64,000 bases of DNA, taken from positions 127,573 to 191,572 of the forward strand of contig DIYL01000059.1 of assembly GCA_002428985.1 (NCBI GenBank). Reading direction: 5' to 3'. Shown here one piece after another: positions 11,752 to 53,839 of this stretch. Positions within the stretch are counted from its first letter, which is position 1. Each line of letters opens with the position of its first letter. The stretch comes from Anaerolineales bacterium UBA6055 (GTDB lineage Bacteria; Chloroflexota; Anaerolineae; Aggregatilineales; Phototrophicaceae). A program made the translations under genes and the position numbers. The notes beneath the pieces were generated by a model, which did not search any database, was not told where the DNA came from, and was given only the letters and a program-made list of their open reading frames with translations.

Positions 11752-11811
11752 GGAGTATACGTATGAATTGTCGAAAGTGTCCTTAGGGACTACTGTTTGG
11801 AGGTATATACC

Positions 11812-14313
11812 GTGCCGAATAAAATGGAACGCTTTACACAGCGGGCGCGGCGCGTACTGAGCTTGGCGCAAGAAGAGGCAGAACGTTTACAGCACCATCA
11901 AATTGGGACTGAACATCTTCTCCTTGGACTTATGCGCGAAGAAGGTGGCGTAGCTGGTCGAGTTCTGCGTGATTTAGGCTTAGACCTTCGCCGTGTAGAA
12001 GAATTAGTCACCCGTCTATCAACCTCGGAAAATAAATCTACCAATACCCAACTGGATTTGTCACCCGGCACAAAAAAGGTGCTGGAACTTGCTGTTGATG
12101 AAGCCCGTCGTATGGGTCATCATTATATTGGCACCGAACACTTATTACTGGGGTTAGTCCGTCAACAGGAAGGCATTGCACTGGATGTATTGCGTCGTCT
12201 CGGCGTCAGTCCAGAGGAAGTGCGCCGTCAAACGCGTAAAGTCCTGCAAGAAAGTCCTGTTCAATCCACACAACAAAATAAAGAACGCCCACAGAATAAA
12301 CCACGTCAAAGTGGTGACAAGACACCGCTTGTCGATCAATTAGCAACCGACCTGACTGCCCTCGCACAAGATGGCAAGCTCGATCCTGTTGTTGGTCGTG
12401 AGATGGAAATTGAGCGTGTGATCCAAGTTCTCAGCCGTCGTCGTAAAAACAATCCAGCCCTCATCGGTGAACCCGGTGTTGGTAAAACTGCGATTGTCGA
12501 AGGATTGGCGCAACGTATTATCGAAGGCGACACACCAAAGCCATTGTTGAACAAACGTGTGCTTCAGTTGGATGTCGGCTCCTTGGTTGCTGGCACAATG
12601 TACCGTGGTCAGTTCGAAGAACGCCTCAAACGCGTGATTGAAGAACTCAAATCATCTGACACCATTCTCTTCATTGACGAAGTCCATATGCTCGTCGGTG
12701 CAGGGTCAGCTGGTAGCAGTGTTGATGCCGCTAACATTCTAAAACCCGCTCTCGCGCGTGGTGAATTGCAATGTATTGGTGCAACCACACTCGATGAATA
12801 CCGTAAACACATCGAAAGTGACGCAGCACTCGAACGTCGTTTCCAACAAATCCAAGTTGATGAACCGACCATCGAAGAAACCATCGAAATTTTACAGGGC
12901 ATTAAATACCCTTATCAAGATCATCACAATGTAGAAATTACAGACGAAGCAATCGAAGTCGCGGCAAACTTATCCGCCCGTTACATTCCAGATCGCTTCT
13001 TACCAGACAAAGCAATCGACCTGATTGATGAAGCGGCTGCTCGTCTGCGTATGTACAAAAGCCCAGAAGCTGCATCCGTCCGTCGAATCACTGACGAACT
13101 CGATGTACTCCGTGACGAAATCGAATTGGCAACCGAGGATGACGATCAAGAAGAAATCGAAAGCCTCAAAACCCGTGTCGAATCATTAGAAGCATCCCTC
13201 AACGATGTCCAAGCAAATTGGAATGACGAAACCGGTCAACCACGTCTCGTCGGCGAAGACATCAGCGAAGTTGTTGCTATGTGGACAGGCATTCCTGTTA
13301 CCCGCATCGCCAATGAAGAAAGCGAACGCTTAATGGAGATGGAATCCAAACTCCACGAGCGTATCGTCGGACAAGACGACGCGATTGTTGCCATTAGTAA
13401 AGCGGTTCGTCGAGCCCGCGCTGGTCTCAAAGACCCACGCCGTCCAATCGGTTCATTTATGTTCCTTGGCCCAACAGGTGTTGGTAAAACTGAATTGACG
13501 AAAGCACTTGCCGAATTCTTATTTGGTAGCGAAGACGCCTTAATTCAACTCGACATGAGTGAATTTATGGAACGTCACTCCGTTGCACGTCTCGTTGGTG
13601 CGCCTCCAGGATATGTCGGTTACGAAGACGCAGGTCAATTGACCGAAGCCGTTCGTCGCCGTCCATACAGCATCATCGTGTTTGACGAAATCGAAAAAGC
13701 CCATCCAGAAGCCTTCAATATGTTATTGCAGGTGATGGAAGAAGGTACATTGACGGATGCACGCGGTCGCCGTGTTGACTTCCGTAACGCAATGATTGTC
13801 ATGACCAGCAACGTCGGTGCAGACCTCATCAAACGCAACTCAGGTCTTGGGTTCACAACCCCGCTTGACGGCGAAAAACTCGACGACGAAGCCTACGAAG
13901 ATATGAGCAAGAACGTCATTGACCAATTGCGCCGTATGTTCCGTCCAGAGTTCTTGAACCGTGTTGATGCCAGCATTATCTTCCGCTCACTCAGTCGTGA
14001 AGAAATCAAGCAAATCGTTGACCTAGAACTAAACAAAGTTCGTGAACGCCTGCTTGAACATGCGATTACCCTCGAAGTTGCTGACGAAGCACTCAGCTGG
14101 TTAGCTGAAAATGGCTACGATGCCGAATTTGGTGCGCGTCCATTGCGCCGCTTGATTCAGCAAGAAGTTGAAGATGCCCTATCAGACGGTATTCTGTCCG
14201 GTGACTTCAGCCTAGCGAGTGTGATCCGTGCCGAAGTTGACGACGACGATAACATTGTCCTCCGCAACATAGAAGACGATGAAATCGCTGACGAGCTCGA
14301 AGCACAAGTCTAA
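11812..14313 (+). CDS. ClpC-class AAA+ ATPase (two Clp_N repeats, two AAA modules, short middle domain without a clear UVR signature)
   Basis: Clp_N repeats (GTEHLLLGL twice); Walker A GEPGVGKT and GPTGVGKT; Walker B ILFIDE and [14 protein letters not shown] at 11799-11803 favours the GTG at 11812; the ATG at 11824 (MERFTQRA) is the alternative. The track starts at a TTG at 11797. Confidence 0.9.
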
Positions 14314-16274: not shown

Positions 16275-16829
16275 ATGGCGATTCAACCCATTACAAAAAT
16301 TACAGCCGAATCGTACTTTGAATTAGAGGACTATCAAACACATGACCTTATTCAACTCGTCAATGGTGAGGTAATTATTGGTATGCCACCTATTCCGAAC
16401 CACCAACGCATTGTGCGCGAAATCTTGGTTATGCTGACCTTACTGGCACGTAAAATTGGTGGTGAGGCATTCGACTCTCCTATTGAATTATATCTCGACG
16501 AACACAATGTCTTCGAACCCGATGTACTTTATATGTCACCAAACAGCAAATGTGAGGTGAAAGGTAAACGATTAGAAGGCGCACCCGAACTCATCGTCGA
16601 AGTCCTCTCACCAAGTACAGCCAAATATGACAAGCGTGAAAAATATGCCACCTACGAACAACATGGCGTACAAGAATACTGGATTGTTGACCCAGTCCAC
16701 GAATTAATTGATGTGTGGGCATTAGATGGTGGCAAGTTTGTACATCAAGGCGCATACAGCACTGACGACACATTCAAGTCACAAGTACTCAAGGCCGATG
16801 TCGAAGTAAAGACACTGTTTGATAGTTAG
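16275..16829 (+). CDS. Uma2 (DUF820) family endonuclease
   Basis: 184-aa ORF. Has AESYFELED, LVNGEVIIGMPP, EPDVLYMS and APELIVEVLSPST. Confidence 0.85.
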   Translation: MAIQPITKITAESYFELEDYQTHDLIQLVNGEVIIGMPPIPNHQRIVREILVMLTLLARKIGGEAFDSPIELYLDEHNVFEPDVLYMSPNSKCEVKGKRLEGAPELIVEVLSPSTAKYDKREKYATYEQHGVQEYWIVDPVHELIDVWALDGGKFVHQGAYSTDDTFKSQVLKADVEVKTLFDS

Positions 16830-17780: not shown

Positions 17781-19970
17781 CTACTCGTCAAACGGACCAA
17801 AGTAATAATACTCCAGAATCTGGCGCGTGAGCGGGGCGGCAATCGCTGAACCATCACCAGCGTTTTCGACCATCGTCACGATTGCAATTTGCGGATCGTC
17901 AGCAGGCGCATACGCGATAAACCAACTATGTGGTTGTGCGCCTTCACCCGGGGCTTGGGCGGTTCCGGTTTTACCACACACACCTATATCGAGTAGTGGT
18001 GAATTACGGAAAATATGTGAGGCAGTCCCTGTACGTGTCGAGATGACATCGCACATACCGCCTCGAATAACATTAAGCGTATCGGCGCTAACTTCTGTAT
18101 CTTTGATCACATCGCGTTCAGCCACAATCGTTCGTTGATCGAGGATACCACGTTGACGCACCAATTGTGGCCGGAGCAAATACCCCCCATTCACAACCGC
18201 AGCATACATGCGTACCATCTGCAACGGCGATGCCTGCACCTCGCCCTGACCAATCGACAAGTTCACAGCAAAGGCATACGACCATGGCAAACCTGATGTT
18301 TGCAATACATTATCTGGTGTCGGGATATTTCCGGGAGATTCTTCAATATCGGTTAATCCCGTAAAGTCCCCGAGTCCCATCAGCAACGCATATTTCGAGA
18401 GCAAATACGGATCTTCGGCATTTAATCTAAAGCCAACTTCATAATAAAACGGGTTGCAACTATTCGTGACAGCCGATTGTACCGTCATCCGACCATGACC
18501 ACCCGCTAACCAGTCATAACGAAAATCCCCATTATGATTCCAGATCCCGTTACAAAAATACGCTGTCTCATCAATATAGACACCGCTTTCCAAGGCAGCT
18601 ACCGAACTCATGATTTTCATGACCGAGCCTGTCGGATAAACACCCTGCGTCGGGCGATTAAGCTGTGGCACACGATCATCTTCTGCCAGATCTTCCAACA
18701 CAAGGTCAGCGACTTCACGCCCGACAGCGGGGAATGGATTTTGTGCGTTGCCCTCAAATGTCGGATAGCTCGCCATCGCTAAAATTTCGCCATTATTGAC
18801 ATCCATCACAACAACCGAAGAGCCCGCCGACGTAGCCCCCCATGTGCCAGAATTTTCGATATAGGCTTCGCCAAGAACACGCAACGCATATTCCTGCAAG
18901 CCAGAGTCAATCGTCAACCAGAGGCTTTCGGGGATTTGTGAGCGCACTTCAGCAAGTGTCCGGAGGCGTTCACCTGTCGGCGAGACAATCACCAAACGCC
19001 CCCCCGGTTGACCCGCTAATGTATCATTCCAGCTTTCTTCAATGCCCGCTTTACCGATAATTGTCTCGGCATTAAAGCCAATCGCTTCCAGATCATCAAT
19101 TTCGTCTTCATCCGGATAGCCAACATGTCCGATCACATGAGGCATCAATGACCCACGCAGATAACGACGTGTCGCTTGTTGGCGGAATTCAGCACCACAT
19201 TTTTCTTCAACTTCTGCATTGCGTTGGAGGAACACAGCTGGCTCCATCACCCCTGCATCGACTTCCCAGTTCACACCAGACCGCACATCAAACAGATCAA
19301 CGATTTCTTCAAAGTCTTTATCGACCGTCTCACTCAAAACTTGGAAACATGCCGGACGGTCGGGAATATCTTCATTACTCACAAAGACACGCACAACCCG
19401 TCCATTTTGGTCGGCAAGTACTTCACCATCGCGGTCATAAATATTGGCACGACTCGGAATTTGTGGCTCGAAAACGAGTGTCGCACCATTACCCATTTCT
19501 CTAAAAATATCAGCTAATGACCATGCAACCCGCCATTCACCATTTTCAGGGTCAATCACCATCCGCAACTCGCGGTCAGTATCTGTAAATTGTCCCAGAA
19601 TCCGCGTATCGAAGGTCATATCATAATTAAACACAACAATCCGCACACCCTCACGTAACAGCGACTTAGCTGTATAGTGAATTGAACGGAACGTCATTGT
19701 TGTTTGAGCTTGGTCGTACAAACTGCGGAATGTCTCTAGAGGTGTTGATTCTTGGTTGCGGAATGTAAGCAAGCTGTGCATTGCGTCAAAATCTTGTCGT
19801 CGCCACGCATCCAAATACAACCGCGCAACCCGATCTGCCGCTTCGAGATCAGCAGGCGATGTCGGACTGGGTTGAATCGTTGGCAAGGGTTCAGCTTGGT
19901 GGGCGACCTGCGGGCGGCATCCAACCAAGACAATAAGAATAACAAAGGCGATAATTCCAAAACGACGCAC
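17781..19970 (-). CDS. Penicillin-binding protein 2-type transpeptidase with N-terminal extension
   Basis: 729-aa ORF. Lipoprotein-like signal LIVLVGCRPQ; SVMK (SxxK), SCN (SxN) and KTGTA motifs in the correct order. Confidence 0.85.
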   Translation of the reverse strand: MRRFGIIAFVILIVLVGCRPQVAHQAEPLPTIQPSPTSPADLEAADRVARLYLDAWRRQDFDAMHSLLTFRNQESTPLETFRSLYDQAQTTMTFRSIHYTAKSLLREGVRIVVFNYDMTFDTRILGQFTDTDRELRMVIDPENGEWRVAWSLADIFREMGNGATLVFEPQIPSRANIYDRDGEVLADQNGRVVRVFVSNEDIPDRPACFQVLSETVDKDFEEIVDLFDVRSGVNWEVDAGVMEPAVFLQRNAEVEEKCGAEFRQQATRRYLRGSLMPHVIGHVGYPDEDEIDDLEAIGFNAETIIGKAGIEESWNDTLAGQPGGRLVIVSPTGERLRTLAEVRSQIPESLWLTIDSGLQEYALRVLGEAYIENSGTWGATSAGSSVVVMDVNNGEILAMASYPTFEGNAQNPFPAVGREVADLVLEDLAEDDRVPQLNRPTQGVYPTGSVMKIMSSVAALESGVYIDETAYFCNGIWNHNGDFRYDWLAGGHGRMTVQSAVTNSCNPFYYEVGFRLNAEDPYLLSKYALLMGLGDFTGLTDIEESPGNIPTPDNVLQTSGLPWSYAFAVNLSIGQGEVQASPLQMVRMYAAVVNGGYLLRPQLVRQRGILDQRTIVAERDVIKDTEVSADTLNVIRGGMCDVISTRTGTASHIFRNSPLLDIGVCGKTGTAQAPGEGAQPHSWFIAYAPADDPQIAIVTMVENAGDGSAIAAPLTRQILEYYYFGPFDE

Positions 19971-20163: not shown

Positions 20164-21060
20164 TTACGACGAGTAATTATCCCCAAACACACTCACGAGT
20201 AATTCTGCCAATTTTTCACGATCCGGTACCCGTACCGACCCCGTTGTTGACCCATAGAAAAAACTATATTGCTCATTGAGCGAGCCAAACTGTAAATTTT
20301 CCTCACTGATATTCATCAAAGACAAACCAACATAAACAGCATCTTGTGGTTTGAGGTTACTGACAACGTTATTCGAAAATTGCGCCCAGATATTAGGGGC
20401 TTCGCTAATGACAAACTGCAAGACAGATGGATCAGCCAAGCGATCACGAATCGCACGAATCACCTGTAGTTGACGCTCAACCCGCAAATAATCATTATCG
20501 GCATGACGGGTACGTGCAAACCGTAGCGCATCATAGCCATCAAGGAGATGTGTACCAATCGGCAAATAAAATGGATCATAGCCAAAGTTCATATCTGGAT
20601 AAGTCGTATCATTGATTGGATAAGTCGTTGTAATTTCAACCCCACCTATCGAATCAACCAGCCCGATAAATCCGTTAAAATCAACAAGCACATACGCATC
20701 AATATACATACCGAGATTATGCTGGATGACCTGCCGTGTGAGTTCGGGTCCAAACCCTTCTTGACGTAATTCGCCTCGCACCAATAAGGTATGTACCGAA
20801 ACCAGTTCACCATTTTCTGGCAATGCTAGATGAATCGTACGCGGTATACTCAAAACACCAGCACGATTCGAAAGCGGATCAATACTTGCTATCATGATCG
20901 TATCGGAGCGGAATGTTAGTGAGCCACCCTCAGATGGACGACGATCAATTCCCATGATCAGAACCGTATAGCGGTCGATTCCATTCCAATTAAATTCGTC
21001 TTGTGCATGTACAACGGGCAAAGAAAACAAAATGCAGAGGATGATGACTAGTCGTTTCAT
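20164..21060 (-). CDS. LytR-CpsA-Psr (LCP) family cell-wall glycopolymer ligase
   Basis: 298-aa ORF with a signal/anchor. Has IMGIDRR, SDTIMIASID, VDFNGFIGLVDSIGGVEI and RTRHADNDYLRVERQ. Confidence 0.85.
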   Translation of the reverse strand: MKRLVIILCILFSLPVVHAQDEFNWNGIDRYTVLIMGIDRRPSEGGSLTFRSDTIMIASIDPLSNRAGVLSIPRTIHLALPENGELVSVHTLLVRGELRQEGFGPELTRQVIQHNLGMYIDAYVLVDFNGFIGLVDSIGGVEITTTYPINDTTYPDMNFGYDPFYLPIGTHLLDGYDALRFARTRHADNDYLRVERQLQVIRAIRDRLADPSVLQFVISEAPNIWAQFSNNVVSNLKPQDAVYVGLSLMNISEENLQFGSLNEQYSFFYGSTTGSVRVPDREKLAELLVSVFGDNYSS

Positions 21061-23892: not shown

Positions 23893-24115
23893 ATCACACC
23901 ACCAATCTGAGTAAAGATGAATCAATTTCAGTGTAACCGAGTTTAATATTATGCATAGATAACAAATGTCATCGTTTGAAACTGCGAACGCAATTTTTCA
24001 GTGTATGCTCAGATTCTTTGATTTCGGCAAAAACTTATACCCTTAGTTTGTTAGCAAATAATTTGTTTGATAAAATCATTTACATTTACTCATGCAATTA
24101 ACGAAAGGCCTAATA

Positions 24116-26239
24116 ATGTCAGGGAATTGGTATAGTGGACTTTATCAGCGCATAACTGATGATACACAGCGTTATATCCTAGAAGGAAAAGACCTTGCGT
24201 TACATTATGCAGATTTATTGCGTAATTATGACAATATTGAAATTATAAGTGATAAAAATGTACCAGATGAACGTAAATTTAATTACGCCAAAATTGACGA
24301 ATTATATAATCGTGTTCGCTCTGATATGATTAAAATAGCAGTATGTGGTGCATTTTCATCTGGCAAGAGTTTCTTAATTAGTGGTCTGCTAAACCATTTA
24401 CAATATGCACCCAAACCGAGCGAATTGAACCCTGCTGAAATTGATGATGATTGGGTTGTTCTCTTACCCGTCGCAGCAGAACATACCACGAATTGTACTG
24501 TGAAGATTTTCGCATTACCTGAAGGAAATGAAACACCATACCTTAAATTACGGTTTAAAGAATCCGATAAATGGCATCGTGTGACGGATGAGAATGCAAC
24601 TATAGAAGATGTTCGTATTGAATTGCTCAAGTATGTAACAACTATTAAAGAGCATCGCGAACTACGAGACCTAATGTTTCGTAATTATAGCACTGTCGAA
24701 GCACATGTGTATCTAAATAATATGGAATTCCCAGCAATTATATATGATTTGCCTGGTTTAGGCGGCATTAACACTGACGGGCGACAAGAAGAATATGACA
24801 AAATCTTTAAGAAACGTGTTAACGAAGCAGATTGTATCATTTATGTAACTAGTGCAATACGTGAATTAACAAATCGCGAATTAGATTTATTGCGTGAACT
24901 TGAAAACAGTATTCACCGTAATCCATTACAACACACATTTTTTATTGTGTCTCAAATTGATCGAGCTCCACGTGATTATCAACGGATTGTTGATATTAAC
25001 AAAAACTATCTGATGAAAAATTTTGAGACAGATGGAGTGCCGAATGAACGATTTATTGGAGATAACTTTATTCCTGTCTCACCTGCACAGGAATCAAAGA
25101 CCCACTATAGACTTGAACATGACGAAATAAAACAAGAGCATGCTGATATTGCAATAAACAAGAGTGGTATGCCAGATTTGAGAGACCGCTTAAGAAATTA
25201 CCTATGGAGAATTTCCGGGCCTAAACACCAAAAAGAAATACTTGAAGAATACATTGAATTTTTATCAGCATTATATGAAGATGCAAATGCGCCTATTACG
25301 GCTTACTCAGAACCCATTGAGGATGGTGAAAAGAAATTGGCAGAAATTCAACAAGAACGCGAATTTCTCAAACAGCAACGTCAAGATATGGAAACCATAT
25401 TAGACTCGACTTATGCGCCACATATTGCAGAAGTCTTTGGAGAAGATTTTTCCAGTCAACTTGCAGACTATCTTGAACATAAGCTTGAGGCTGTTCTCAC
25501 CAAAAAAGATGTTACTAAGCCAGAAGTTCGCAATGAGCTTTTACGATCTCAACGCCGATATGCGGAAGACTGGTTTATGGTAGAAAACGGTTTGCATGAC
25601 AAAATGCAACGTGCCATTGAAGAATATGATGCAGATATGAGTTACCAGTTTGATAAGATGGTCAAAAAACATGAAGAGAAATACAACGTACAATTTTGGA
25701 AGGTGATTAGTAACTTTCAATCAGCAAATTCGATTGTTACTGGATCCGATTCTAAAGCAATCGCTGATCATGCTGTAAATGTTGCAGCTTTATTGTTTGG
25801 TGGGGGCGGTGGTTTGACAGGTCTCAGCGCATGGGGTTTACTAGGTACGACCGCCTTACCCATTGCGATTAGTCTTGCTGTCGTACTGACAGGTGTGAGT
25901 ATTTTTCAGCGAGGTCGCCGCCTCGAGCAAATTGAACTTGCTCGTGAAGAATTTCGCCAAGAAATACGAAAATATGCTACAGAATTTATCAATGCATCAC
26001 GTAAACAGCTCGAAAATACACTCGCGAAAGAGTATAAAGGTATCTGGATGAAAACACTTAACAATTATATTACAAACAATCGTAATGAGGCACAAACACT
26101 CAAAAATCGCATGAAATCAGGTGATTTGAGCATTAATAAAGAGCGCGTTGAAGCATTCGAGCACACACAAGCAAAACTACAACGCCAAATTGAGAATATT
26201 ATGCGTCAGATTGCTTTGATTGATGAGGTTCTACCATAA
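24116..26239 (+). CDS. Bacterial dynamin-like large GTPase with predicted membrane hairpin
   Basis: G1 is GAFSSGKS, G3 is DLPGLGG and the G4-like motif is SQID. Long helical stalk. Gly-rich hydrophobic hairpin LLFGGGGGLTGLSAWGLLGTTALPIAISLAVVLTGVSIF. AAAGG lies 7 nt upstream of the ATG at 24116; the ORF is open from 24092. Confidence 0.7.
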   Translation: MSGNWYSGLYQRITDDTQRYILEGKDLALHYADLLRNYDNIEIISDKNVPDERKFNYAKIDELYNRVRSDMIKIAVCGAFSSGKSFLISGLLNHLQYAPKPSELNPAEIDDDWVVLLPVAAEHTTNCTVKIFALPEGNETPYLKLRFKESDKWHRVTDENATIEDVRIELLKYVTTIKEHRELRDLMFRNYSTVEAHVYLNNMEFPAIIYDLPGLGGINTDGRQEEYDKIFKKRVNEADCIIYVTSAIRELTNRELDLLRELENSIHRNPLQHTFFIVSQIDRAPRDYQRIVDINKNYLMKNFETDGVPNERFIGDNFIPVSPAQESKTHYRLEHDEIKQEHADIAINKSGMPDLRDRLRNYLWRISGPKHQKEILEEYIEFLSALYEDANAPITAYSEPIEDGEKKLAEIQQEREFLKQQRQDMETILDSTYAPHIAEVFGEDFSSQLADYLEHKLEAVLTKKDVTKPEVRNELLRSQRRYAEDWFMVENGLHDKMQRAIEEYDADMSYQFDKMVKKHEEKYNVQFWKVISNFQSANSIVTGSDSKAIADHAVNVAALLFGGGGGLTGLSAWGLLGTTALPIAISLAVVLTGVSIFQRGRRLEQIELAREEFRQEIRKYATEFINASRKQLENTLAKEYKGIWMKTLNNYITNNRNEAQTLKNRMKSGDLSINKERVEAFEHTQAKLQRQIENIMRQIALIDEVLP

Positions 26240-28517: not shown

Positions 28518-29091
28518 ATGGCAACCAATCCGCTTGATCGCAAATGGACAGCCGAAGAATATTTAGCCTACGATGACGCATCCGATATTCGCCATGAATT
28601 TCTCAACGGTAAACTTATTGCAAAAATCTATGAAACATCCAATCATAGCATCATTGTTTCAAATACATCCGCTATATTGTGGCAACTAGCCCGCAAAAAT
28701 GCTTGTCGTGCCCGCCTATAATCAAATGCTAACTAAAATTAACAATGATACCTATTTCTATCCTGATGTGTTGGTAACATGTGGAAAATCAGAATATGAA
28801 ACTGAAAATAATACAATGCCCCTAAACCCAACCGTCGTCATTGAAGTTACCTCAAAATCATCGGAAACATTTGACAAGGGCTTAAAAGCTGAGCTATATC
28901 GCAGTATTGAATCAGTCAAAGTGTATCTCGTCATCGACCAGCATCGTGTCTTTGCCCAACTATCAACCCGTCAACACAATGGTTGGCTTTTGCAGGAATT
29001 CACAAAAATCCATCAAGCGATTCCATTGAGATCAATTAATGTCGATTTGCCTCTCAGTGATGTCTATCTCGATATAGAGTTTGAAAGTTAA
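28518..29091 (+). pseudogene. Uma2 family endonuclease, frameshifted
   Basis: ORFs 28518-28721 and 28699-29091 together align end-to-end with the 3041-3613 protein. The frame changes around 28705-28718. The AMSGGT-type segment is also degraded (IAKIYETSNH). Confidence 0.75.
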
Positions 29092-29102
29092 GACGGGAAG
29101 TA

Positions 29103-29480
29103 TTATCTGAGAGTTTTTGTTATACCAACACCCGTCCCAGCAAGGATTAGAGTTGTATCTTGAGGCAATTTGATTTTGTAGAGTTTGCGTCGAAATGGAG
29201 AGCCAATCAACTCATCATCACTACGATTATTGAAGTCCTCTAGTCTACGGGCAATCTCCAACATTTCTGAATCAGACCCGATTGAAAAATGAGCTCCATT
29301 CCATCGCTTATACAATTGACCTGAAAAATATTCAACTGACCCAAATATATAATAGAATTGCTTTTCGGGGTTTTCCAGATGTCGCAAATGAATACGTAGT
29401 TGACCATGCCCTTTGTTATAGTCGAAAATCTTGCATGTATATGACTCAGGATTTTTGAGATGCGGAAACTGATAATCCAT
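29103..29480 (-). CDS. Hypothetical protein
   Basis: 125-aa ORF with no recognisable motif. The alternative-frame ORF 29240-29509 was judged less protein-like. Confidence 0.4.
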   Translation of the reverse strand: MDYQFPHLKNPESYTCKIFDYNKGHGQLRIHLRHLENPEKQFYYIFGSVEYFSGQLYKRWNGAHFSIGSDSEMLEIARRLEDFNNRSDDELIGSPFRRKLYKIKLPQDTTLILAGTGVGITKTLR

Positions 29481-29549
29481 AGGGACTCCTGTGGTAAGTT
29501 TTCACCCAATATTATACAGTCGCCAAGATAGATTAACGTTAGTCGCAGA

Positions 29550-30104
29550 CTATTCTCTAGCTTTCAACCAAGCTTGCACCTGTTCCAACCAATCCTCTGC
29601 ATCATCAACTCCGCTGACATGCGTCAAAGCACGTTTCGCAAATACCGCATCCACATCCATCGTTCCCGCATCATACTCAACAACATCAATCAAATACTGC
29701 GCATAATCAAAGTCACCCATCGCTACCAAAAGTGTTGACCCCGCCGATACACGTAACTCGGCATTCGATTTGTCGTTAGCAATTTCCAGAAATTCAGCCG
29801 TCGTCTCCCATGCTTCGACCGTATTCATATCAGCACGTAGTGACTCTGCAAACGTCAGCCCCCACCGCTCTTGGATGAGGCTAAGACTTTCATCAACAAG
29901 GCGTTTCATAATGGGTTGAATCGCAGGTAATTTTTCATGTTCGCTATCATCGGCAATTGCCCGTGCCACAGCGATCATATCATTGGCAGTCAACGTGACA
30001 CCGTTATCAATCAATAGCCGTTTAAATTGGCTGAGTAACACGCGCATCAAATCAAAAAACGGGGCGCTACCTAATTTATCATCAGGGGTAGGTGGTAAAG
30101 TCAT
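29550..30104 (-). CDS. Hypothetical protein (all-helical, acidic)
   Basis: 184-aa ORF with coding-like composition and no recognisable motif. Confidence 0.5.
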   Translation of the reverse strand: MTLPPTPDDKLGSAPFFDLMRVLLSQFKRLLIDNGVTLTANDMIAVARAIADDSEHEKLPAIQPIMKRLVDESLSLIQERWGLTFAESLRADMNTVEAWETTAEFLEIANDKSNAELRVSAGSTLLVAMGDFDYAQYLIDVVEYDAGTMDVDAVFAKRALTHVSGVDDAEDWLEQVQAWLKARE

Positions 30105-30232
30105 GATTACTCCATTGAATTAACTTTTATTGATTGTACAAGACATCAGTAGTTTGCTTGAGGGTTTTCGGATTGGTTTAAATGAGCAATCTATGTGTAT
30201 ACTTATCATAGACATACAGTGAGGTTTACATT

Positions 30233-31237
30233 ATGACGAAATCTAAGCGCAAAAATGATGAGATATTACAGCCTACCTTTTTACGATTCGTCAAATACGT
30301 TATTCTTGTGTCTATTAGTCTTATCGTACCGTTAGCGTTGATGTTTTTTTGTTCAACTACTGTACTAATGATTAGCTCGCATACATCAGATTGTTTCATG
30401 AGTCCATGTCTTCCCGATTGGGACGACATGAACGATGTGGCGGATTATTATAATTTTTACATCCCATCCTCAGCAAGTAATATCAAGTATGTTAATGATG
30501 ATGCTGATGCATTCTTCGAAATCCATTTTGATCTACCTAAGAATGATTTTGATAGCATTAGGAATCGTACTTGCCAAGGTAACTTCCAAGCAGGATATGA
30601 TCCATCTCAAAGCAAACATCAATTTTCGAGCGAATACCCAACTATACTTATAAAATCCTTTGAGTATCCCTTTTACTCACACTCAGTTGATACACCAACT
30701 CATATCTTAGGTAAACTATGCCGTTGGGATTTAGCGATTCGTGTAGATACATCAAATCCTGATATATATAAAATCACTTATCAACGCTATGAATACACCA
30801 CAACAGCTTGCGAAGTTGAGTGTTTTACAACACAGCGTTTTATCAAACCAATTAATAATTCACTGTTTGCTGTAAGTGGATTGATAGAAAGAAATGATAC
30901 ATTTTACATAGAATTTAATACTTTATGTTTCGACAGCAAAATGTATCAAATTATCAATCCAACCAATCAATATCTACCTGCGTTTACACAAATCAACATC
31001 TCTATTGATGATATGTTCTTCCTACCTACAGGGATCGTAACTAAATATCATCGTTTAGTACGAGATTATATTCTTCTAGATGAGGAAGACCATGATTTAG
31101 CACGTTACCAACAGAGTCCACTTAATGAATTTTGTATCGAACATGATTGGGAGCAAGGTAAACATACCGTAAATGTTGAAATGATTTTGCCAGATGGCAT
31201 GATCGAAAATCACAGTTTTGATTTTTATGTCGATTAA
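30233..31237 (+). CDS. Hypothetical membrane-anchored protein
   Basis: 334-aa ORF with GAGG RBS. N-terminal TM VILVSISLIVPLALMFFCSTTVLMI, then a Cys-containing extracytoplasmic region. The gene is AT-rich. Confidence 0.5.
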   Translation: MTKSKRKNDEILQPTFLRFVKYVILVSISLIVPLALMFFCSTTVLMISSHTSDCFMSPCLPDWDDMNDVADYYNFYIPSSASNIKYVNDDADAFFEIHFDLPKNDFDSIRNRTCQGNFQAGYDPSQSKHQFSSEYPTILIKSFEYPFYSHSVDTPTHILGKLCRWDLAIRVDTSNPDIYKITYQRYEYTTTACEVECFTTQRFIKPINNSLFAVSGLIERNDTFYIEFNTLCFDSKMYQIINPTNQYLPAFTQINISIDDMFFLPTGIVTKYHRLVRDYILLDEEDHDLARYQQSPLNEFCIEHDWEQGKHTVNVEMILPDGMIENHSFDFYVD

Positions 31238-31442
31238 CCTACTAATCTCATCAGAGACAATCAAATTGTAGAACATTCATAACCAATAGATATTTATATT
31301 CTGGCAGATGCTATGTCATGTGTCCTATTTTTTATGCGATTAATACACTTCGCACAGCGGATTAAGATGCCAGAAACTACGGAACGCACTATAATAAGCG
31401 TGTTAAGTGTATTTGCTCAATCACGAATAGGAGATAACACGT

Positions 31443-31877
31443 ATGGCAACCAATATGCAAGAAGTTGATAGCCTCGTCGCAAATGAGTTTTCAGTTGAGG
31501 TTGATGGTAATGAAGTGCAAGGTGTGTTCAGTGTTGAAGGGTTGACATTGTTTCAACTGAGTGACGACGGAACACGCATGAATCCCGCATTGAAAATCAC
31601 CAAAATGGTACAACGCGATGCCAGCTTACCGTTCAATCAATGGCACAAAGAAACAATGGACAGCCGCGATTCGGATACCCGTCCAACCCGTACATTAGCT
31701 GTTGTTGCAATTGATGATGGTGTCGAGACCCGTCGCTGGACATTAAAAGATGCCTATATCACAAGCATTAGCTATTCTAATTATGACGCCGGCTCATCGG
31801 AAATGATTGAAGAACAATATACCATTGCCTACAACGATATTGAAGAAACTTGGACATTCGCGGATTCTAACGCGTAG
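31443..31877 (+). CDS. Contractile-tail tube-like protein (T4 gp19 / eCIS tube family pattern), orphan
   Basis: 144-aa ORF with GGAG 9 nt upstream. FSVEVDGNEVQGVFSVEGL, LPFNQWHKE and RRWTLKDAYITSISYSNYDAGSSEMIEEQYTIAYNDIE follow the conserved layout of tail-tube proteins as I recall it. Confidence 0.65.
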   Translation: MATNMQEVDSLVANEFSVEVDGNEVQGVFSVEGLTLFQLSDDGTRMNPALKITKMVQRDASLPFNQWHKETMDSRDSDTRPTRTLAVVAIDDGVETRRWTLKDAYITSISYSNYDAGSSEMIEEQYTIAYNDIEETWTFADSNA

Positions 31878-31890
31878 GATGATAAACATC

Positions 31891-31923
31891 TGTAGAGAAG
31901 GGAGACAGACTCTCTTCTCTACA
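31891..31923. terminator. Hairpin between convergent genes
   Basis: TGTAGAGAAGGGAG / CTCTCTTCTCTACA forms a 14-bp stem (one G-U) with a 5-nt loop. No strong T-run follows. Confidence 0.5.
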
Positions 31924-31940
31924 ATCCCTATTGAAGTCAA

Positions 31941-32660
31941 TTAGGCGCGGTCACCGAATAGATCGGGAGGACGTTGGGTAAACATATAGCCGACACCACG
32001 TTCGGTGCGGATATAGTGCGGATGGTGTGAATCCGACTCCAACTTACGACGTAAACGATGCATATGAACGCGCAGTGTATCTTCAAATACATCTTCAGAC
32101 GGCCAGACCCGCGCAATTAACATACGGTTCTCAACCACGCGCCCGGCATTACGTAACAACACGTGAAGTAAAATAGATTCAGTTGGAGTTAAGCCGATTG
32201 TCTTGCCGTTCACCACAATGCGATTATGTGCAAAATCAATGTTCAGATGTTCATCAACGCGAACAATGGGTTCACTCGCATAATCAAAGCTTGGCATACG
32301 CGCTAACACCACTTGTATACGAGCTTCTAATTCACGCAACTCAAATGGTTTTACAATAAAGTCTTCTGCATACTTTTTCAGACCTTGTACAATGGTTTCT
32401 TTATCACCTGTGGATGTCACAAAAATAATAGGGACATCTGCCATCGACTTAAGCTTATTCGCAAGTTCAAACCCGTGCATGCTCGGCAGAGATAAATCGA
32501 CGAGCGCAATATGTGGCAAACCGCGCTGGCGCACATATTCCAGTGCTTCGGGTCCATCACTAAATCCAGTAACATCATAACCAGTTTTTGTAAGATAATC
32601 TGTAATAAGCTTACTGACGTTTGTGTCGTCTTCAACCATCAGTACTTTTGATTTTTTCAT
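31941..32660 (-). CDS. OmpR/PhoB-family response regulator
   Basis: Receiver domain (VLMVEDD, ALVDLSLP, KPF) plus winged-helix output (LTPTESILLHVL, VHMHRLRRKL, GVGYMF). No histidine kinase gene is adjacent. Confidence 0.9.
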   Translation of the reverse strand: MKKSKVLMVEDDTNVSKLITDYLTKTGYDVTGFSDGPEALEYVRQRGLPHIALVDLSLPSMHGFELANKLKSMADVPIIFVTSTGDKETIVQGLKKYAEDFIVKPFELRELEARIQVVLARMPSFDYASEPIVRVDEHLNIDFAHNRIVVNGKTIGLTPTESILLHVLLRNAGRVVENRMLIARVWPSEDVFEDTLRVHMHRLRRKLESDSHHPHYIRTERGVGYMFTQRPPDLFGDRA

Positions 32661-32833
32661 TATACTATTACTCGCTTTCTGCGACTTTCGATTTTAGTGA
32701 ATTAAATGTTATTTGTAATGTAACAAATATACACTAATTGTAATACTAAGTCAAATATAAAAACAAATCGTATATAACTTTTTACATTATCTTTAGGGTA
32801 TTTGCTAAGCACTAATATAACACACCCTCAATC

Positions 32834-32860
32834 AAAAAAGCATAGTCGATTGACTATGCT
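32834..32860 (-). terminator. Rho-independent terminator of the NUDIX gene
   Basis: On the minus strand, AGCATAGTC-aatc-GACTATGCT is followed by TTTTTT, 27 nt after the stop. Confidence 0.7.
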
Positions 32861-32886
32861 CATCATCTTCGGGATAGTTATTAAAC

Positions 32887-33357
32887 TTATTGCATATCGC
32901 GCAGGTGATCTAGATTCTGTAGCATCCAGTCGCGCATCTCAGGTGTTTTAATATTTATCGTATGCAATGCAAAGGCATCGAGAGGAATTTCTTCAGGGAT
33001 AAATTCACCACGGGTTGGATCGTCGAACTCCGGCCCATGCCGTTTCGTTAGATCATAGCCATTGAGCTTGCAAATGAAGAAGTGTTCTTCTAGATATTTA
33101 CCCGCTTTTTCATGTTCAAGTATAAATGCCGTCTCTAGAACAGTCGCACTCGCACCCAACTCTTCACTAAGCTCACGATCTAATGTATCCAATAGACTGT
33201 GATCTTCATGTTCAACACCACCACCAGGAGCAACCCAATACGGTTGAGGTTTATGTGGTTTGACACGTTTAATAAACAATACCGAGTCATTACCAGTTAG
33301 CAAAATGGCACGTACACGGCGGTTTTTATTTTTCGCCTCGTCAGTGTTTGTTTTCAT
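32887..33357 (-). CDS. NUDIX hydrolase
   Basis: Nudix box GGGVEHEDHSLLDTLDRELSEELG. Confidence 0.85.
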   Translation of the reverse strand: MKTNTDEAKNKNRRVRAILLTGNDSVLFIKRVKPHKPQPYWVAPGGGVEHEDHSLLDTLDRELSEELGASATVLETAFILEHEKAGKYLEEHFFICKLNGYDLTKRHGPEFDDPTRGEFIPEEIPLDAFALHTINIKTPEMRDWMLQNLDHLRDMQ

Positions 33358-36220: not shown

Positions 36221-38641
36221 TTATTCATCACCATCAATTGTAAAAGTCCCGAGCACAATCGTATTGTCTTGTGCACCTTCCACATTGGTTAACACATCAT
36301 AGCGTATCGCATCCGGTAACGCATACCATCCCGTCAACACCAGATAATCACCCGCAGGCAACTCACTAATATCCAGTGATAGGGTCTCGGTCCACTGTCC
36401 ATCACGTTCACCATCGCCGATATTATCATCAGCTTGTGCCACCAACCGTCGGTTTTCATCAAGGATATGGATGAATCGAATATCCGTCTGAGCCCGGGGA
36501 TTCTCTAGACGCCACCATAGACGCACAGCCGAATCTGAGGCGAAGTCCTCTGGCATGAAAAACGACGCCAACTCAATCCCATCTTCCAGCCGTATCGGGT
36601 CATAAATTGGGCCATCTGTAAACGATACGATTTCAATATCGCTGATCGTCACATCCCGACACACTAAAATCTCAGCGTTAAAGCGCACAGGGCATGGCGG
36701 ATCAAGTTCAATATGGAAAGTATTATACCCACGACGACCAATTGGTAATGGCACAGACAAGCGTTGTGTGCCATCAATCGTCCATGTATGAACCCGCTCA
36801 TCATTCAACAAAAGATGAATCGTCCGATTATCAGCGGTAAATGTCGCCGTATATTCGAGCCACCCCGGTTGTTCTTTGTAGATATAAGTAGTGTTCTGTC
36901 GTTCATCCGGCGTAACAGTATAAACACTATCCGGTTCAGCTGTCATAATTGGCGTTTCATAAATCGCATATCGATCATCTTCATAAATCGCTGCTCCAAG
37001 ATGAATCAAAGCACGATTCTGCAATGTCTCGAGCATATTCATCTGTGACGCACGTTGCTTATTGATAATCACAATATCGGCGCCTGCATCTGTCAATAAT
37101 GGCGTTTCCATCGTCGACAGCAATTCCAATCGCGCCGGATCAATCGGTGTTTCACGTGCGACTTGTCCAGCAATCAGCGCTTTATTATGAGCAGTCTGTA
37201 GAAAGAGAGCTTCTTTCGCCGACAGCAAATTATCATGGGGAACATTAAATACAGCCCGAATATCAGTACGATCAGCCAGTTCGTGAATCGCTTGAGGTAT
37301 CTGTGCAGTTTGCATCGGGAAAGACTCAAAGAATTGGTAATCACGAAAAATGAGCACCGCAAGCAAAATCACTGCCAGATAACGGACAAATTTTCTGGAA
37401 TTCCGTACCCATCCACTCGTCCAAATGAACGCCATACCATATCCAGCCATCATCGCAAACGCCAATGCGAATAAGAACATAAATCGCCCCGGCGTCCGTG
37501 CAAGCTCAAAAATAGGCAACTCCATAAATAGCGCATACGGTAATGGCACAATCGTCTCATATCCCGCGACACCTATCGTCACAGGTTGGTCGAGTACTTT
37601 GAGTACAGGACCTAACGCGAATATCCATGCGACAACTGCTACCAATAACCACCAGCGCGAGTTGCGATGACTCAACACACCGATCAATGCGAGGAACAGG
37701 CCAATTACGCCAACATAACTCGAGCCTTCAGCAATGTTCGTTCCTAAAACGAGCGATGAGTATTGGGTAATGTCCGACCAAAATGGATTCAAAAATGAGG
37801 GACTAGCCAGCCCTAATAAATCAATACTGAAACGGACAAACCCGCCAGATTCAACATATTGTGACGTCCCTAGCGTATCGCCAACTGTCGGGAAAAGATA
37901 AATCAGCAGCACCACACCACCGACCAACCCGACCGTCACAACCCGCGTGACCCCAATCCAAATGCGATTATACAACTGAGCAAACAGAAATAACGCCATC
38001 AGAGGCAACAATAAATAGATGACCTGTAACGCATGACCACTGGGTGACAAGACAAAGAAGATAACAGATAACCCGAACCAGCGTCGCCGCCCAGTATCGA
38101 TATATTGAAACAAGGCGTACACAAGCAATGGTACACCCCACTGCACCATCAACCCCGCATGACCATCAAACAGATGCCCCTGAAACACCGGAAAAATCAT
38201 AAAGATCAAACCCGCAATCAAAGCAGGCGTATGATGTTCATGTCCAAGGCGATGACGCGCAAGAAAATACATCGCCCATCCATTTAATGCCATCGTTAGC
38301 AATATTGTAATGTTGTACGCCGTAGCAATCGGCATCACGAACGTAAACACCCACATCGGGAAAAACTGTAACGGGTTCGCCCACAACGTCACACCCGAAA
38401 ATCCCTCAGGATACCCTAAGTTCGATTGCCAGAAGATGTCTTCACCAGTTTGGATTGCTGTTTTAAACCACCAGACATGCCGTGCCATCTCATAGGCATC
38501 ACTTGTATCCCCTCCAATAAACGCTGTCGAAAGCGAAGTCACCGCCGGATATGTCACTCCGATAGCAACCAATAAATAGAGCAGATAGACCAATACATGA
38601 TGGCGTGGAATCTGTTTGAGCACAGCAATTTCCTCATTCAC
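36221..38641 (-). CDS. Large polytopic membrane protein, GT-C-like (ArnT/PMT/YfhO-type) glycosyltransferase candidate with C-terminal extracytoplasmic domain
   Basis: 806-aa ORF. About 12 or more hydrophobic helices fill the first ~440 aa, followed by a soluble ~350-aa domain. No diagnostic motif was verified. Confidence 0.55.
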   Translation of the reverse strand: MNEEIAVLKQIPRHHVLVYLLYLLVAIGVTYPAVTSLSTAFIGGDTSDAYEMARHVWWFKTAIQTGEDIFWQSNLGYPEGFSGVTLWANPLQFFPMWVFTFVMPIATAYNITILLTMALNGWAMYFLARHRLGHEHHTPALIAGLIFMIFPVFQGHLFDGHAGLMVQWGVPLLVYALFQYIDTGRRRWFGLSVIFFVLSPSGHALQVIYLLLPLMALFLFAQLYNRIWIGVTRVVTVGLVGGVVLLIYLFPTVGDTLGTSQYVESGGFVRFSIDLLGLASPSFLNPFWSDITQYSSLVLGTNIAEGSSYVGVIGLFLALIGVLSHRNSRWWLLVAVVAWIFALGPVLKVLDQPVTIGVAGYETIVPLPYALFMELPIFELARTPGRFMFLFALAFAMMAGYGMAFIWTSGWVRNSRKFVRYLAVILLAVLIFRDYQFFESFPMQTAQIPQAIHELADRTDIRAVFNVPHDNLLSAKEALFLQTAHNKALIAGQVARETPIDPARLELLSTMETPLLTDAGADIVIINKQRASQMNMLETLQNRALIHLGAAIYEDDRYAIYETPIMTAEPDSVYTVTPDERQNTTYIYKEQPGWLEYTATFTADNRTIHLLLNDERVHTWTIDGTQRLSVPLPIGRRGYNTFHIELDPPCPVRFNAEILVCRDVTISDIEIVSFTDGPIYDPIRLEDGIELASFFMPEDFASDSAVRLWWRLENPRAQTDIRFIHILDENRRLVAQADDNIGDGERDGQWTETLSLDISELPAGDYLVLTGWYALPDAIRYDVLTNVEGAQDNTIVLGTFTIDGDE

Positions 38642-41822: not shown

Positions 41823-44414
41823 CTAATCGTATCGTTCGTAATTATCCTGATTATCTGACGATTCGTATCCGGTATAATCCAGTTCCTCATCATGAGACTG
41901 CGACGTTGAATACTCGGATTGTTCATATCCATCAAAGTCTTGTGGATAGTCATCTTGTATCTCCACAAAATCAGTTTGCTGGTCAAGATGACGGGTAAAC
42001 GACAATTCACCCTTCTTCTCATCAATCACGACCAGATCGCCTTGTACGAAATCACCTTTGAGCAATTGAATACTCAGCGGATTTTCTACATAACGTTGCA
42101 ATGCACGGCGTAGAGGTCGCGCACCAAATTGTGGATCATACCCTTGTTTTGCAATCCAATTACGAGCAGGTTCGGTCAGATGAATCGCCAGACCGGATTC
42201 TTGCAAGCGTTCTGCGAGACCGCGCAATTGCAAGTCAACCATTTGCTCAACCGCTTTCAGTGTCAGTGGTTCGAAAATGATAATCTCATCGATACGATTC
42301 AAGAATTCCGGACGGAAGGTATCACGCATCGCTTTTTCAATTTTCTGATGATCGGCGATAGCTTCTTGGTCACCGCCTTGGATAAACCCAAGTGCGCCAC
42401 CTTTTTTCGCGAATTCTGTCCCGAGGTTACTCGTCATAATCAGTACTGTATTGCGGAAGTCGACGACATGCCCCTGCCCATCAGTCATACGACCATCTTC
42501 AAGAACTTGTAGCAAGGCACTCCACACATCTGAGTGTGCTTTTTCAATCTCATCAAATAAGATGACACGATAAGGACGGCGACGTACAGCTTCTGTCAGT
42601 TGACCACCAGCTTCATATCCGACGTAGCCTGGAGGCGCACCAAACAAACGACTGACAGTATGTTTTTCACGATACTCACTCATATCGACACGCACCAGCG
42701 CATCTTCATCATCAAACATGAACTCAGCTAGCGATTTTGCAAGTTCGGTCTTACCAACACCACTCGACCCAAGGAAGATGAACGACCCAATTGGACGTTT
42801 CGGATCTTTAAGGCCACTACGCGCCCGACGAATCGCATCAGATAATGCCTCGACCGCTTTTTCCTGACCGATTACGCGTTCGTGTAAAACTTCTTCCATG
42901 CGCAGCAATTTCTCGGACTCAGTTTCCAGCATTTGATGCACCGGAATACCTGTCCACTGCTCAACAACCTGTGCAATATCATCGGCTGTCACCAGCTCAT
43001 CAAGTGTATTTTCTTGTCGCCAGATATACCGCTCCCGCTCAAATTCTTCTTCAAGCTGAATCCGTTGCATTTTGCAATCCGCAGCCCGTTCATAATCTCT
43101 CGATAAGCCAGCAGCTTCTTCTTCCATTGCCAACCGATCGACAGCTTCACGCATTTCTTTAAGTCGCGGTGGCATCGAAAATAACGCAACCCGCAATTTT
43201 GCAGCCGCTTCGTCTAACAAATCAATCGCTTTATCAGGGAGTTTACGTTCTGTGAGGTAACGCGCAGACAAACGTGCTGCCGCCTCGATCGCATCATCAG
43301 AAATCGTAACATTATGATGCGCTTCGTATCGATCACGAATCCCATAAAGCATTTCGACGGTATCTTCGACACTAGGTTCTTCGACAAAAATAGGCGCAAA
43401 ACGACGATCTAACGCACTATCTTTTTCGATATATTGGCGATATTCGTCCATCGTGGTCGCACCGACAGTCTGTAACTCACCGCGTGCCAATGCAGGCTTC
43501 ATCATATTACCCGCATCCATCGCGCCAGCGCCGGCACCGGCACCAACAACTTGATGCAACTCATCAATAAAGAGGATAATCTCGCCATCGGAACGTTGTA
43601 CCTCTTCAATAACCGCTTTGAGCCGTTCCTCAAATTCACCACGGAAGCGACTACCAGCCACCATACCACTCAGGTCAAGGCTGAGCACGCGCTTATTCAG
43701 CAAAATATCAGGCACATCAGCCGTCGCAATTTTTTGGGCTAAACCTTCGACAATTGCTGTTTTACCCACACCCGCTTCACCGATGAGAACAGGGTTATTT
43801 TTTGTACGGCGACTCAACACTTGAATCACGCGCAAAATTTCTGCATCGCGCCCAACCACAGGGTCAAGTTTACTTTCCATCGCCATACGCGTTAGGTCGC
43901 GGCTATATTTTTCTAGGGTACGGTAACGGCTTTCTGCCTGTGGGTCAGTCACCCGTTGTCCACCGCGAATATCTTTCACCGCATCGGAGACACGGTCGCG
44001 AGTAATATCATAATCCGCCATCAGCTTGGCTACCGCCGTATTACGCTCCGCTAAAATTGCGAGGAAAATATGCTCAGTGCTGATATATTCGTCGCGTAGT
44101 CGGCTGGCTTCTTCATTAGCACGGTCAATAATGCTCTTCAGGCGCGGGGTGATAAATACCTGATTCGTTCCCTGACCATAAATCGCCGCAGTCCGTGGGC
44201 TTTGGCGCAGAACATCATCAACGCGGGAACGCATACCACTCACATCTATATTGAGGCGTTCCAATACCTGTGGGATGACACCATCAGTCTGTTCAAGCAG
44301 AGCCAGCAAAATATGCTCAGTATCTACTTGATTATGTCCATATCGTTGTAAAATCTCATAGGCACGGGCAGCAGCATCTTGTGCGCGTTCCGTAAATCTG
44401 TCAAATCGTAGCAT
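41823..44414 (-). CDS. clpC: ClpC-class AAA+ ATPase with UVR-like middle domain and unusual acidic/Tyr-rich C-terminal tail
   Basis: Two Clp_N repeats; GEAGVGKT and GSSGVGKT Walker A motifs. The ~80-aa middle domain contains [11 protein letters not shown], which is UVR-like, so it is ClpC-type rather than ClpB-type. It has a ~45-aa tail, [43 protein letters not shown]. Confidence 0.85.
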
Positions 44415-53795: not shown

Positions 53796-53839
53796 ATCAG
53801 GCTCTCCGTATAATGACACGCCAATTATAGCAAATCGCC

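Follow-up and report, generated by a model that had tools for sequence, protein, structure and literature searches.

A stretch of 64,000 nucleotides (nt) from Anaerolineales bacterium UBA6055, a member of the family Phototrophicaceae (Chloroflexota; Anaerolineae; Aggregatilineales), carries a small gene whose product resembles the inner tube protein of contractile injection systems (CISs) and which stands apart from all other genes of such a system. This stretch, the window, corresponds to C27:127573-191572 of an 8.5-Mb, 62-contig assembly (G000), and the gene is here called the orphan. Its open reading frame (ORF; 31443..31877, +) starts with ATG and encodes a protein of 144 amino acids (aa) that contains the sequence motifs quoted in an earlier note on this DNA. 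Also present, as that note had claimed, are the gene's own ribosome-binding site (RBS), a TATAAT hexamer and a strong hairpin after the gene. The Shine-Dalgarno (SD) core GGAG (31430..31433, +) lies 9 nt before the ATG, and the hexamer, at 31390-31395, is the -10 element of the promoter-like site ATGCCA-17-TATAAT (31367..31395, +), which scores 10/12 and is the best such site in the region. Both signals are conserved. A perfect TATAAT or TATACT is found between -80 and -20 in 50 of 65 orthologous loci; it lies 36-48 nt ahead of the start codon, with a median of 42.5 nt from the end of the hexamer to the ATG, against background rates of 12.6% for other genes in those loci and 1.8% for random windows; an SD-like core is found in 58 of the 65. 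The perfect 13-bp hairpin (31892..31922, no strand assigned) lies 3' of the stop codon, between the orphan and a convergent gene for an OmpR-type response regulator (31941-32660), and its 71-nt fold of -26.8 kcal/mol (z = -4.4) is equalled by none of 200 shuffles. It is a possible bidirectional terminator without a T tract; because that tract is missing it was left uncalled by the terminator scan, which reported no canonical intrinsic terminator at the gene, and Rfam gave no known RNA family at E <= 1 within 29000-33000. The conserved -10 box and SD core, together with the selection described below, argue that the orphan is a self-contained transcription unit maintained across Phototrophicaceae.

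Assignment of the protein to the gp19 and extracellular CIS (eCIS) tube family, which the earlier note had proposed together with a check against PF06841 and TIGR02241, holds, although only one of the two profiles is matched above its cutoff. PF06841 (Phage_T4_gp19) scores 38.9 bits against a gathering cutoff of 28.2 (E = 9.2e-10), with the match covering profile positions 50-133 only, the C-terminal two thirds of the profile. TIGR02241, at 35.2 bits, falls short of its cutoff of 62.4, as do the NCBIfam models CIS1_fam (25.2 bits vs 220) and CIS5_fam (14.1 vs 260) and the Hcp profile of type VI secretion systems (T6SSs), PF05638 (16.8 vs 23.5, E = 0.0084). In PHROGs a tail tube family is matched at E = 3.6e-7, and the sole sequence match in the PDB is the CIS tube of Streptomyces coelicolor (8bl4, E = 1.4e-6). 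An AlphaFold2 model built on an alignment of 79 family members reached a predicted local distance difference test (pLDDT) score of 89.7 and a predicted template-modelling (pTM) score of 0.81, and it has the two beta-sheets, single flanking helix and long inner hairpin of a tube protein. The top Foldseek matches of the model are the CIS tubes of Streptomyces, PVC, AFP, AlgoCIS and Anabaena (E from 4.5e-8 to about 1e-5, template-modelling (TM) scores of 0.56-0.70, probability 1.00), followed by Hcp.

The relationship to the canonical tubes, by which we mean those of CIS type, can be followed in a family-to-family comparison. Aligned by hhalign with 23 canonical tubes from Phototrophicaceae, the orphan family gives a probability of 95.5% (E = 1.3e-8) over 133 columns, at 16% identity. 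It lacks 4+10 residues in the region of the beta2-beta3 hairpin, and its KMVQRD motif occupies the position of the canonical LKRGIT. Thus the hairpin segment and the P-G ... LKRGIT motif expected of a functional CIS tube are both missing, and the orphans are far more acidic, with a mean net charge of -10.3 vs -4.6 for canonical tubes. Profile, fold and hhalign results together point to a genuine but strongly diverged homologue of the gp19/Afp1-type CIS inner tube proteins.

The orphan belongs to a tight subfamily that is limited to Phototrophicaceae. A word-indexed search returned 149 homologues with 38-85% identity, all with PF06841, of which the few that are named come from Chloroflexota; 70 homologous genomic loci, nearly all in metagenome-assembled genomes (MAGs), are assigned to Anaerolineae, Aggregatilineales or Phototrophicaceae. 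An exhaustive search of 1.84 billion cluster representatives gave 39 matches at E <= 1e-3 and 24 at E <= 1e-10. Four long matches made up of several stretches (P0125, P0144, P0149 and P0158) were set aside as artefacts of repeats or low complexity, with weak alignments of 43-46 residues. The alignment of 79 family sequences has a mean column identity of 59%, which is unusually high for tube proteins, compared to 38% for the canonical tubes of the same bacteria, and its conserved motifs are VDSLVANEF, KMVQRD, FNxW, RPTR, AIDDGVETRRWT and EMVEET. In a maximum-likelihood (ML) tree, 40 orphans are separated from 23 canonical tubes with support of 100/99 by a stem of 2.8 substitutions per site, and within the orphan group branches are short. 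A single canonical sequence attaches close to the orphan stem through a long branch, a placement flagged as unsafe. Purifying selection acts on the gene: in the five closest orthologues the ratio of nonsynonymous to synonymous substitution rates (dN/dS) is 0.07-0.11, a value that is approximate because dS, at 1.3-2.7, is near saturation. A useful yardstick is a core class B penicillin-binding protein (PBP), discussed further below. At 22 loci with both genes, orphans compared in pairs share on average 53.4% identity and PBPs 52.6%, and the two sets of distances correlate with a Spearman coefficient of 0.44 (the pairs are not independent), which fits vertical co-inheritance at a housekeeping-like rate.

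How far the gene has spread was assessed in a class-wide sample of 301 genomes and a family-wide sample of 120 further Phototrophicaceae genomes. In the first, the orphan is found in 8/8 genomes of its own family and 0/2 of the sister family, with one weak match among about 290 others. In the second, it is found in 105/120 genomes and 40/42 genera, always with one match per genome. The orphan lineage is taken to be as old as the family itself. The 15 genomes that lack it belong mainly to three genera with smaller genomes, include six labelled as the same genus as the window genome, and are read as cases of secondary loss. Sheath genes (PF04984) occur in just 48/120 of these genomes and baseplate gp25 genes (PF04965) in 46/120, both by Pfam profile. 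A functional CIS tube would be expected to be encoded, or to co-occur, with sheath and baseplate genes, a pattern that the orphan does not show: both PF04984 and PF04965 are missing from 57 of the 105 genomes with an orphan, and in 55 of these 57 the orphan is the sole PF06841 match. The 57 include seven closed or nearly closed genomes (G330, G376, G389, G356, G399, G324 and G347). The pattern is consistent across the independent markers.

The window genome itself does have a CIS, encoded elsewhere. At C25:1-8961, on the minus strand, lie genes for a WHD-AAA ATPase, a Pvc16_N protein, a sheath, a 146-aa tube, a 122-aa hypothetical protein, a 179-aa tube and an open-ended product of 886 aa that reaches the contig end; at C54:381511-388834, also at a contig end, lie CIS_tube (PF19266), VgrG-like spike, gp25, Baseplate_J and FHA protein genes. 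The start of C25 and the end of C54 would together form one complete cluster of the Afp/PVC type, split by a contig break. Its two canonical tube genes (PF06841; C25:4013-4453 and C25:2702-3241, both minus strand) and a detached duplicate (C25:93751-94179; PF06841) score 105-123 bits on the profile that gives the orphan 38.9. Although they share the orphan's Pfam family and are of similar length, BLAST finds nothing significant between it and the genome's own CIS tubes (E >= 0.46). The duplicate is 77% identical to the main tube of the cluster and therefore a recent copy, which sets it apart from the much older orphan lineage; it sits next to genes for an AraC-type regulator, an EamA transporter and a 1400-aa FtsK/SpoIIIE-like ATPase and away from any CIS gene. 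Detached tube genes may be a recurrent feature of Phototrophicaceae. In genome G347, where sheath and gp25 have no match, a canonical-type PF06841 gene of 130 bits (G347:C1:5596759-5597196) is solitary in metabolic surroundings, with F420-ligase/DinB-like genes on one side and an acyl-CoA dehydrogenase gene on the other.

These findings bear on what the orphan could do for a contractile system. The earlier note had allowed for a dispersed or reduced injection system, or else an exapted tube protein. The former is unsupported, because the CIS is complete and has its own tubes, and orthologues persist in the 57 genomes without sheath and gp25; the latter is the option that the evidence favours. 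A more specific alternative is that the orphan is an accessory tube subunit serving the CIS encoded elsewhere, comparable to the orphan hcp genes that give a T6SS alternative cargo rings. The complete CIS of this genome would allow it, all 48 of the 48 sheath-bearing genomes carry the orphan, and both the fold and the predicted lateral interface described below are tube-like. However, the co-occurrence with sheaths is explained by the near-universality of the orphan in Phototrophicaceae, whereas its retention in 57 genomes with no sheath or gp25, several of them closed, is not what a CIS subunit would lead one to expect. In about 80 loci it never adjoins CIS genes, it lacks the hairpin segment and motifs of canonical tubes, and it scores far below the CIS1_fam and TIGR02241 cutoffs. 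We consider an accessory subunit unlikely.

The surroundings of the orphan tell a similar story. In every locus examined it stands alone among housekeeping genes, such as those for PBPs, RecO, a ribosomal protein operon, phosphoenolpyruvate carboxylase and glycosyltransferases, and no CIS or phage gene was found within 8-10 kb of it in about 80 loci. Lone phage-tail-like genes are often remnants, and canonical-type tube genes, too, are found detached in a few Phototrophicaceae genomes, so that the orphan could in principle be the last, decaying trace of a prophage or CIS cluster. A degraded prophage just outside the inspected neighbourhood was also what the earlier note had named as a finding that would remove the novelty; none came to light. 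The marks of a remnant, namely relaxed selection, patchy spread and nearby phage genes, are not seen. Instead dN/dS is low, the gene is present and vertically inherited in most of the family with its promoter and SD core conserved, and in-frame stops within the reported span are rare (6/105 matches). A remnant in the course of being lost is effectively excluded.

Whether the protein still forms rings can be approached by structure prediction. A four-copy complex predicted on the family alignment scored 0.50 (runs 0.58, 0.46 and 0.50), compared to 0.01 for the best control, with the runs agreeing in at least 91% of contacts and a partner pLDDT of at least 78. In calibration, the self-association mark was reached by 20/30 one-chain pairs and 1/23 single-chain proteins, counts that apply here only roughly. 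The predicted interface joins residues 106-122 of one copy to 27-39 of the next, in what the model presents as the lateral beta-sheet extension of tube and Hcp rings; what bears on assembly into the hexameric rings of a CIS tube is this in silico prediction of lateral association. The shortened hairpin may weaken the stacking of such rings. An alternative is that the fold was kept and the oligomer lost, leaving a monomeric or dimeric binding protein that has nothing to do with rings or tubes. A large functional shift of this kind could be read from the long stem, the lost motifs and the acidic charge, and the oligomer prediction is computational. On the other side, the predicted contact is the canonical one, it stands well above the controls, and few parts of the family alignment are as conserved as its strands, which makes a non-oligomeric binder improbable in our judgment.

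A retained lateral interface next to a shortened hairpin also raises the prospect of a decoy used in defence. Where canonical tubes are longer, such a look-alike could cap a growing tube and poison the assembly of contractile phage tails or rival tailocins, and host or prophage proteins that prevent tails from assembling are a known means of defence. Yet neither the orphan nor its unannotated neighbours have a match in PADLOC-DB 2.0 at E <= 0.01. The gene behaves as a core gene, being single-copy, vertically inherited, about as slow to change as the PBP, present in nearly all genera and located outside variable islands. Moreover, identity to the family's own tubes is so low, at the 16% given above, that co-assembly with foreign tubes is doubtful. 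The decoy is left with a slim chance.

One gene recurs beside the orphan. In relatives, a class B PBP of about 730 aa is found immediately upstream on the opposite strand, an arrangement seen in 23/75 fetched loci and in at least 31/105 orphan-bearing genomes from about 16 genera, including the smallest closed genomes without a CIS. The genes that flank the pair differ between loci. The window carries the orthologue of this head-to-head neighbour (MecA_N, PBP_dimer and Transpeptidase domains; 17781..19970, -), which here too is divergent from the orphan and upstream of it, but at a distance of 11.5 kb filled by other genes. Since the PBP is found in 119/120 genomes, including all genera without the orphan, the idea that its presence and absence track those of the orphan was rejected. 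The PBP is directly preceded, on its own strand, by an LCP-family (LytR_cpsA_psr) gene (20164-21060, -), and a gene for a dynamin-like GTPase (24092-26239, +) falls within the 11.5-kb stretch between PBP and orphan.

The explanation that best fits these data is a domesticated CIS inner-tube paralogue that works without a CIS, to which we assign a probability of about 0.6 for the history and mechanism proposed here. That the orphan has been put to a new cellular use is probable, because nearly all Phototrophicaceae keep it as a single core gene with its own promoter, even in the absence of a CIS. A CIS tube gene would have been duplicated at or before the origin of the family, and the duplicate would have diverged in a burst and become fixed at its base. 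Since then it would have been kept as a single-copy, vertically inherited and separately transcribed core gene, with or without a CIS. In this process the tube fold and the lateral strand-to-strand contact of hexameric tube and Hcp rings would have been retained, while about 14 residues of the beta2-beta3 hairpin were lost, LKRGIT was replaced and acidity rose far higher. From this combination of a retained contact, a lost hairpin and motif and high acidity, we infer that the protein assembles in the cytoplasm as rings like those of Hcp, which might at most build up into short stacks without a sheath. Such rings might act as a scaffold or binding platform that needs no sheath, baseplate or spike.

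The most speculative step concerns the PBP. Its head-to-head position, ancestral and still frequent, may reflect co-regulation with cell-envelope growth or septation, and an envelope role for the orphan is a tentative suggestion from synteny. In a stronger form, a sheath-less ring or tube would be a structural part of the envelope or septal machinery in the filamentous Phototrophicaceae. For instance, it could serve in the cytoplasm as a scaffold for work with the class B PBP encoded next to it, or form part of a conduit at cell-cell junctions. A phage tail tube would then have given rise to a new cytoskeletal or structural element that needs no contractile apparatus at all. This stronger form we hold to be doubtful.

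Several points weigh against domestication as set out here. Because every sheath-bearing genome also carries the orphan, some use by a CIS is possible where one is present. The figure of 57 genomes reflects two Pfam models, which very divergent contractile systems could escape, and many of the MAGs are incomplete. The 15 genomes without the orphan manage without it, so the gene is not essential. Linkage to the PBP may be inherited gene order with no functional meaning, and in the window it has already been broken by 11.5 kb. The self-association result may stem from the many solved tube and Hcp rings that the prediction model has learned, and may thus show likeness instead of retained binding; four copies also lie outside the calibration. 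Finally, transcription and translation of the orphan are deduced solely from its signals and the selection acting on it.

The known settings of tail-tube and Hcp proteins are contractile machines, namely phage tails, tailocins, CISs of the extracellular and cytoplasmic kinds, and the T6SS. Even orphan Hcp proteins, whose genes lie outside the main cluster, are known to rely on a T6SS of the same genome. The orphan resembles these in being a small tube-fold protein encoded on its own, with weak PF05638 similarity and a predicted lateral self-association like that of Hcp rings. It differs in that its family occurs in the 57 sampled genomes without a detected contractile system, and the structural match to Hcp (TM 0.5-0.6) is weaker than that to CIS tubes. 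With the eCIS tubes Afp1 and Pvc1 (PDB 6rap, 6j0b and 9qgn) it shares the fold (TM 0.65-0.70) and the family PF06841, but no sheath, Afp5/7-type tube, spike or ATPase gene lies beside it. The best structural match is the tube of the cytoplasmic CIS of S. coelicolor (PDB 8bl4, 9gts and 9gtp; lineage IId), at E = 4.5e-8 and TM 0.68. Both proteins are of similar length and have an N-terminal D-x-L-V and a C-terminal W-x-(L/F)-x-x-A motif. In contrast, the orphan is only about 20% identical, has a shorter hairpin region, is not encoded within a CIS cluster and persists in genomes that lack sheath and baseplate genes. Lineage IId CISs related to the Streptomyces system have been described in Chloroflexota, including clusters in Aggregatilineales MAGs, in a report that does not mention detached tube paralogues (bioRxiv 10.1101/2025.08.11.669294).

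In a full-text literature search of incomplete coverage, no report was found in which a tube or Hcp protein is retained as a core gene by bacteria that lack a contractile system; a paper on the secretome of granular sludge mentions an abundant PF06841 protein and makes no link to Chloroflexota. Here a whole family has fixed a tube paralogue that has outlasted repeated losses of the CIS, changes at about the slow pace of a core PBP and has a conserved promoter of its own. If the proposed domestication is correct, this would clearly exemplify how a structural module of viral origin can be recruited by its host, in filamentous bacteria that have received little study. For annotation the practical consequence is that automatic 'phage tail protein' labels on these genes are no evidence of a prophage or an injection system. 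The question is directly testable, because the only cultured member of the family, the filamentous type strain Phototrophicus methaneseepsis ZRK33 (CP051151; PMC8941918), appears to carry the gene. Genome G347, a single contig of 5,631,885 bp that is probably this strain, has the orphan at C1:1988858-1989238 and no match to sheath (PF04984) or gp25 (PF04965), and RNA-seq data sets exist for ZRK33.

The window genome itself calls for some care. At 8.5 Mb it is far larger than six genomes with the same genus label (G326, G353, G374, G387, G397 and G405; 3.2-3.7 Mb), which have no orphan, sheath or gp25 and whose PBPs, at 63-68% identity, are the closest to that of the window. Either genome size differs very widely among members of this genus, or the bin is in some way faulty. 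A gross mixture is unlikely, because contigs C27, C25 and C54 have similar tetranucleotide composition, the orphan is single-copy, the stated contamination is 5.6% and the PBP is closest to those of same-genus genomes.

The Pfam search of the whole genome places no sheath, gp25 or further PF06841 match inside the 64 kb, as the earlier note had it, but its statement that AAA+ genes are absent does not stand: two ClpB-type paralogues, 48% identical and within 30 kb of each other, are encoded at 11797-14313 (+) and 41823-44414 (-), neither of them a CIS ATPase. Two supposed cargo-like proteins with a shared leader turn out to be tandem paralogues (9407-10435 and 10453-11538, +), each with a C-terminal DUF6745 domain; they are 44% identical over their full length, which is more than a leader, and no link to a CIS was found. 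The neighbours of the orphan were described correctly. Directly upstream is a gene for a 334-aa hypothetical protein with an N-terminal hydrophobic segment (30233..31237, +), which is 45% identical to its counterpart at locus L012 and occurs in 2/75 loci. Before it lies a gene for a 184-aa protein of no known family (29550..30104, -), which is 73-75% identical at loci L008 and L012 and occurs in 4/75. Neither has a Pfam or PADLOC match, and with so few occurrences both were rejected as conserved partners and are regarded as lineage-specific neighbours. The convergent response regulator was likewise set aside, being common only to the closest loci (L010 and L018).

Genes encoding proteins with TIR domains lie within 10 kb of tube-like genes in several genomes (L012:883-3447, L010:20091-20429, L013:13175-14383 and L109:13555-14880). 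The TIR proteins are fused to NB-ARC/TPR, WD40, FHA or pentapeptide repeats, and as these genomes are rich in them the proximity may be coincidence. The window also holds six genes of the Uma2 family (PF05685), putatively restriction-endonuclease-like, at 2413-3006, 3041-3613, 16275-16829, 28518-29091, 52501-53091 and 53208-53819; the fourth is split into two overlapping ORFs of 67 and 130 aa, which suggests a frameshift. Lastly, a match to the immunity protein family Imm11 (PF07791; 35421-36041, -) adjoins a gene for an 800-aa protein without a Pfam family (36221-38641, -), and the two could form a toxin-immunity pair.

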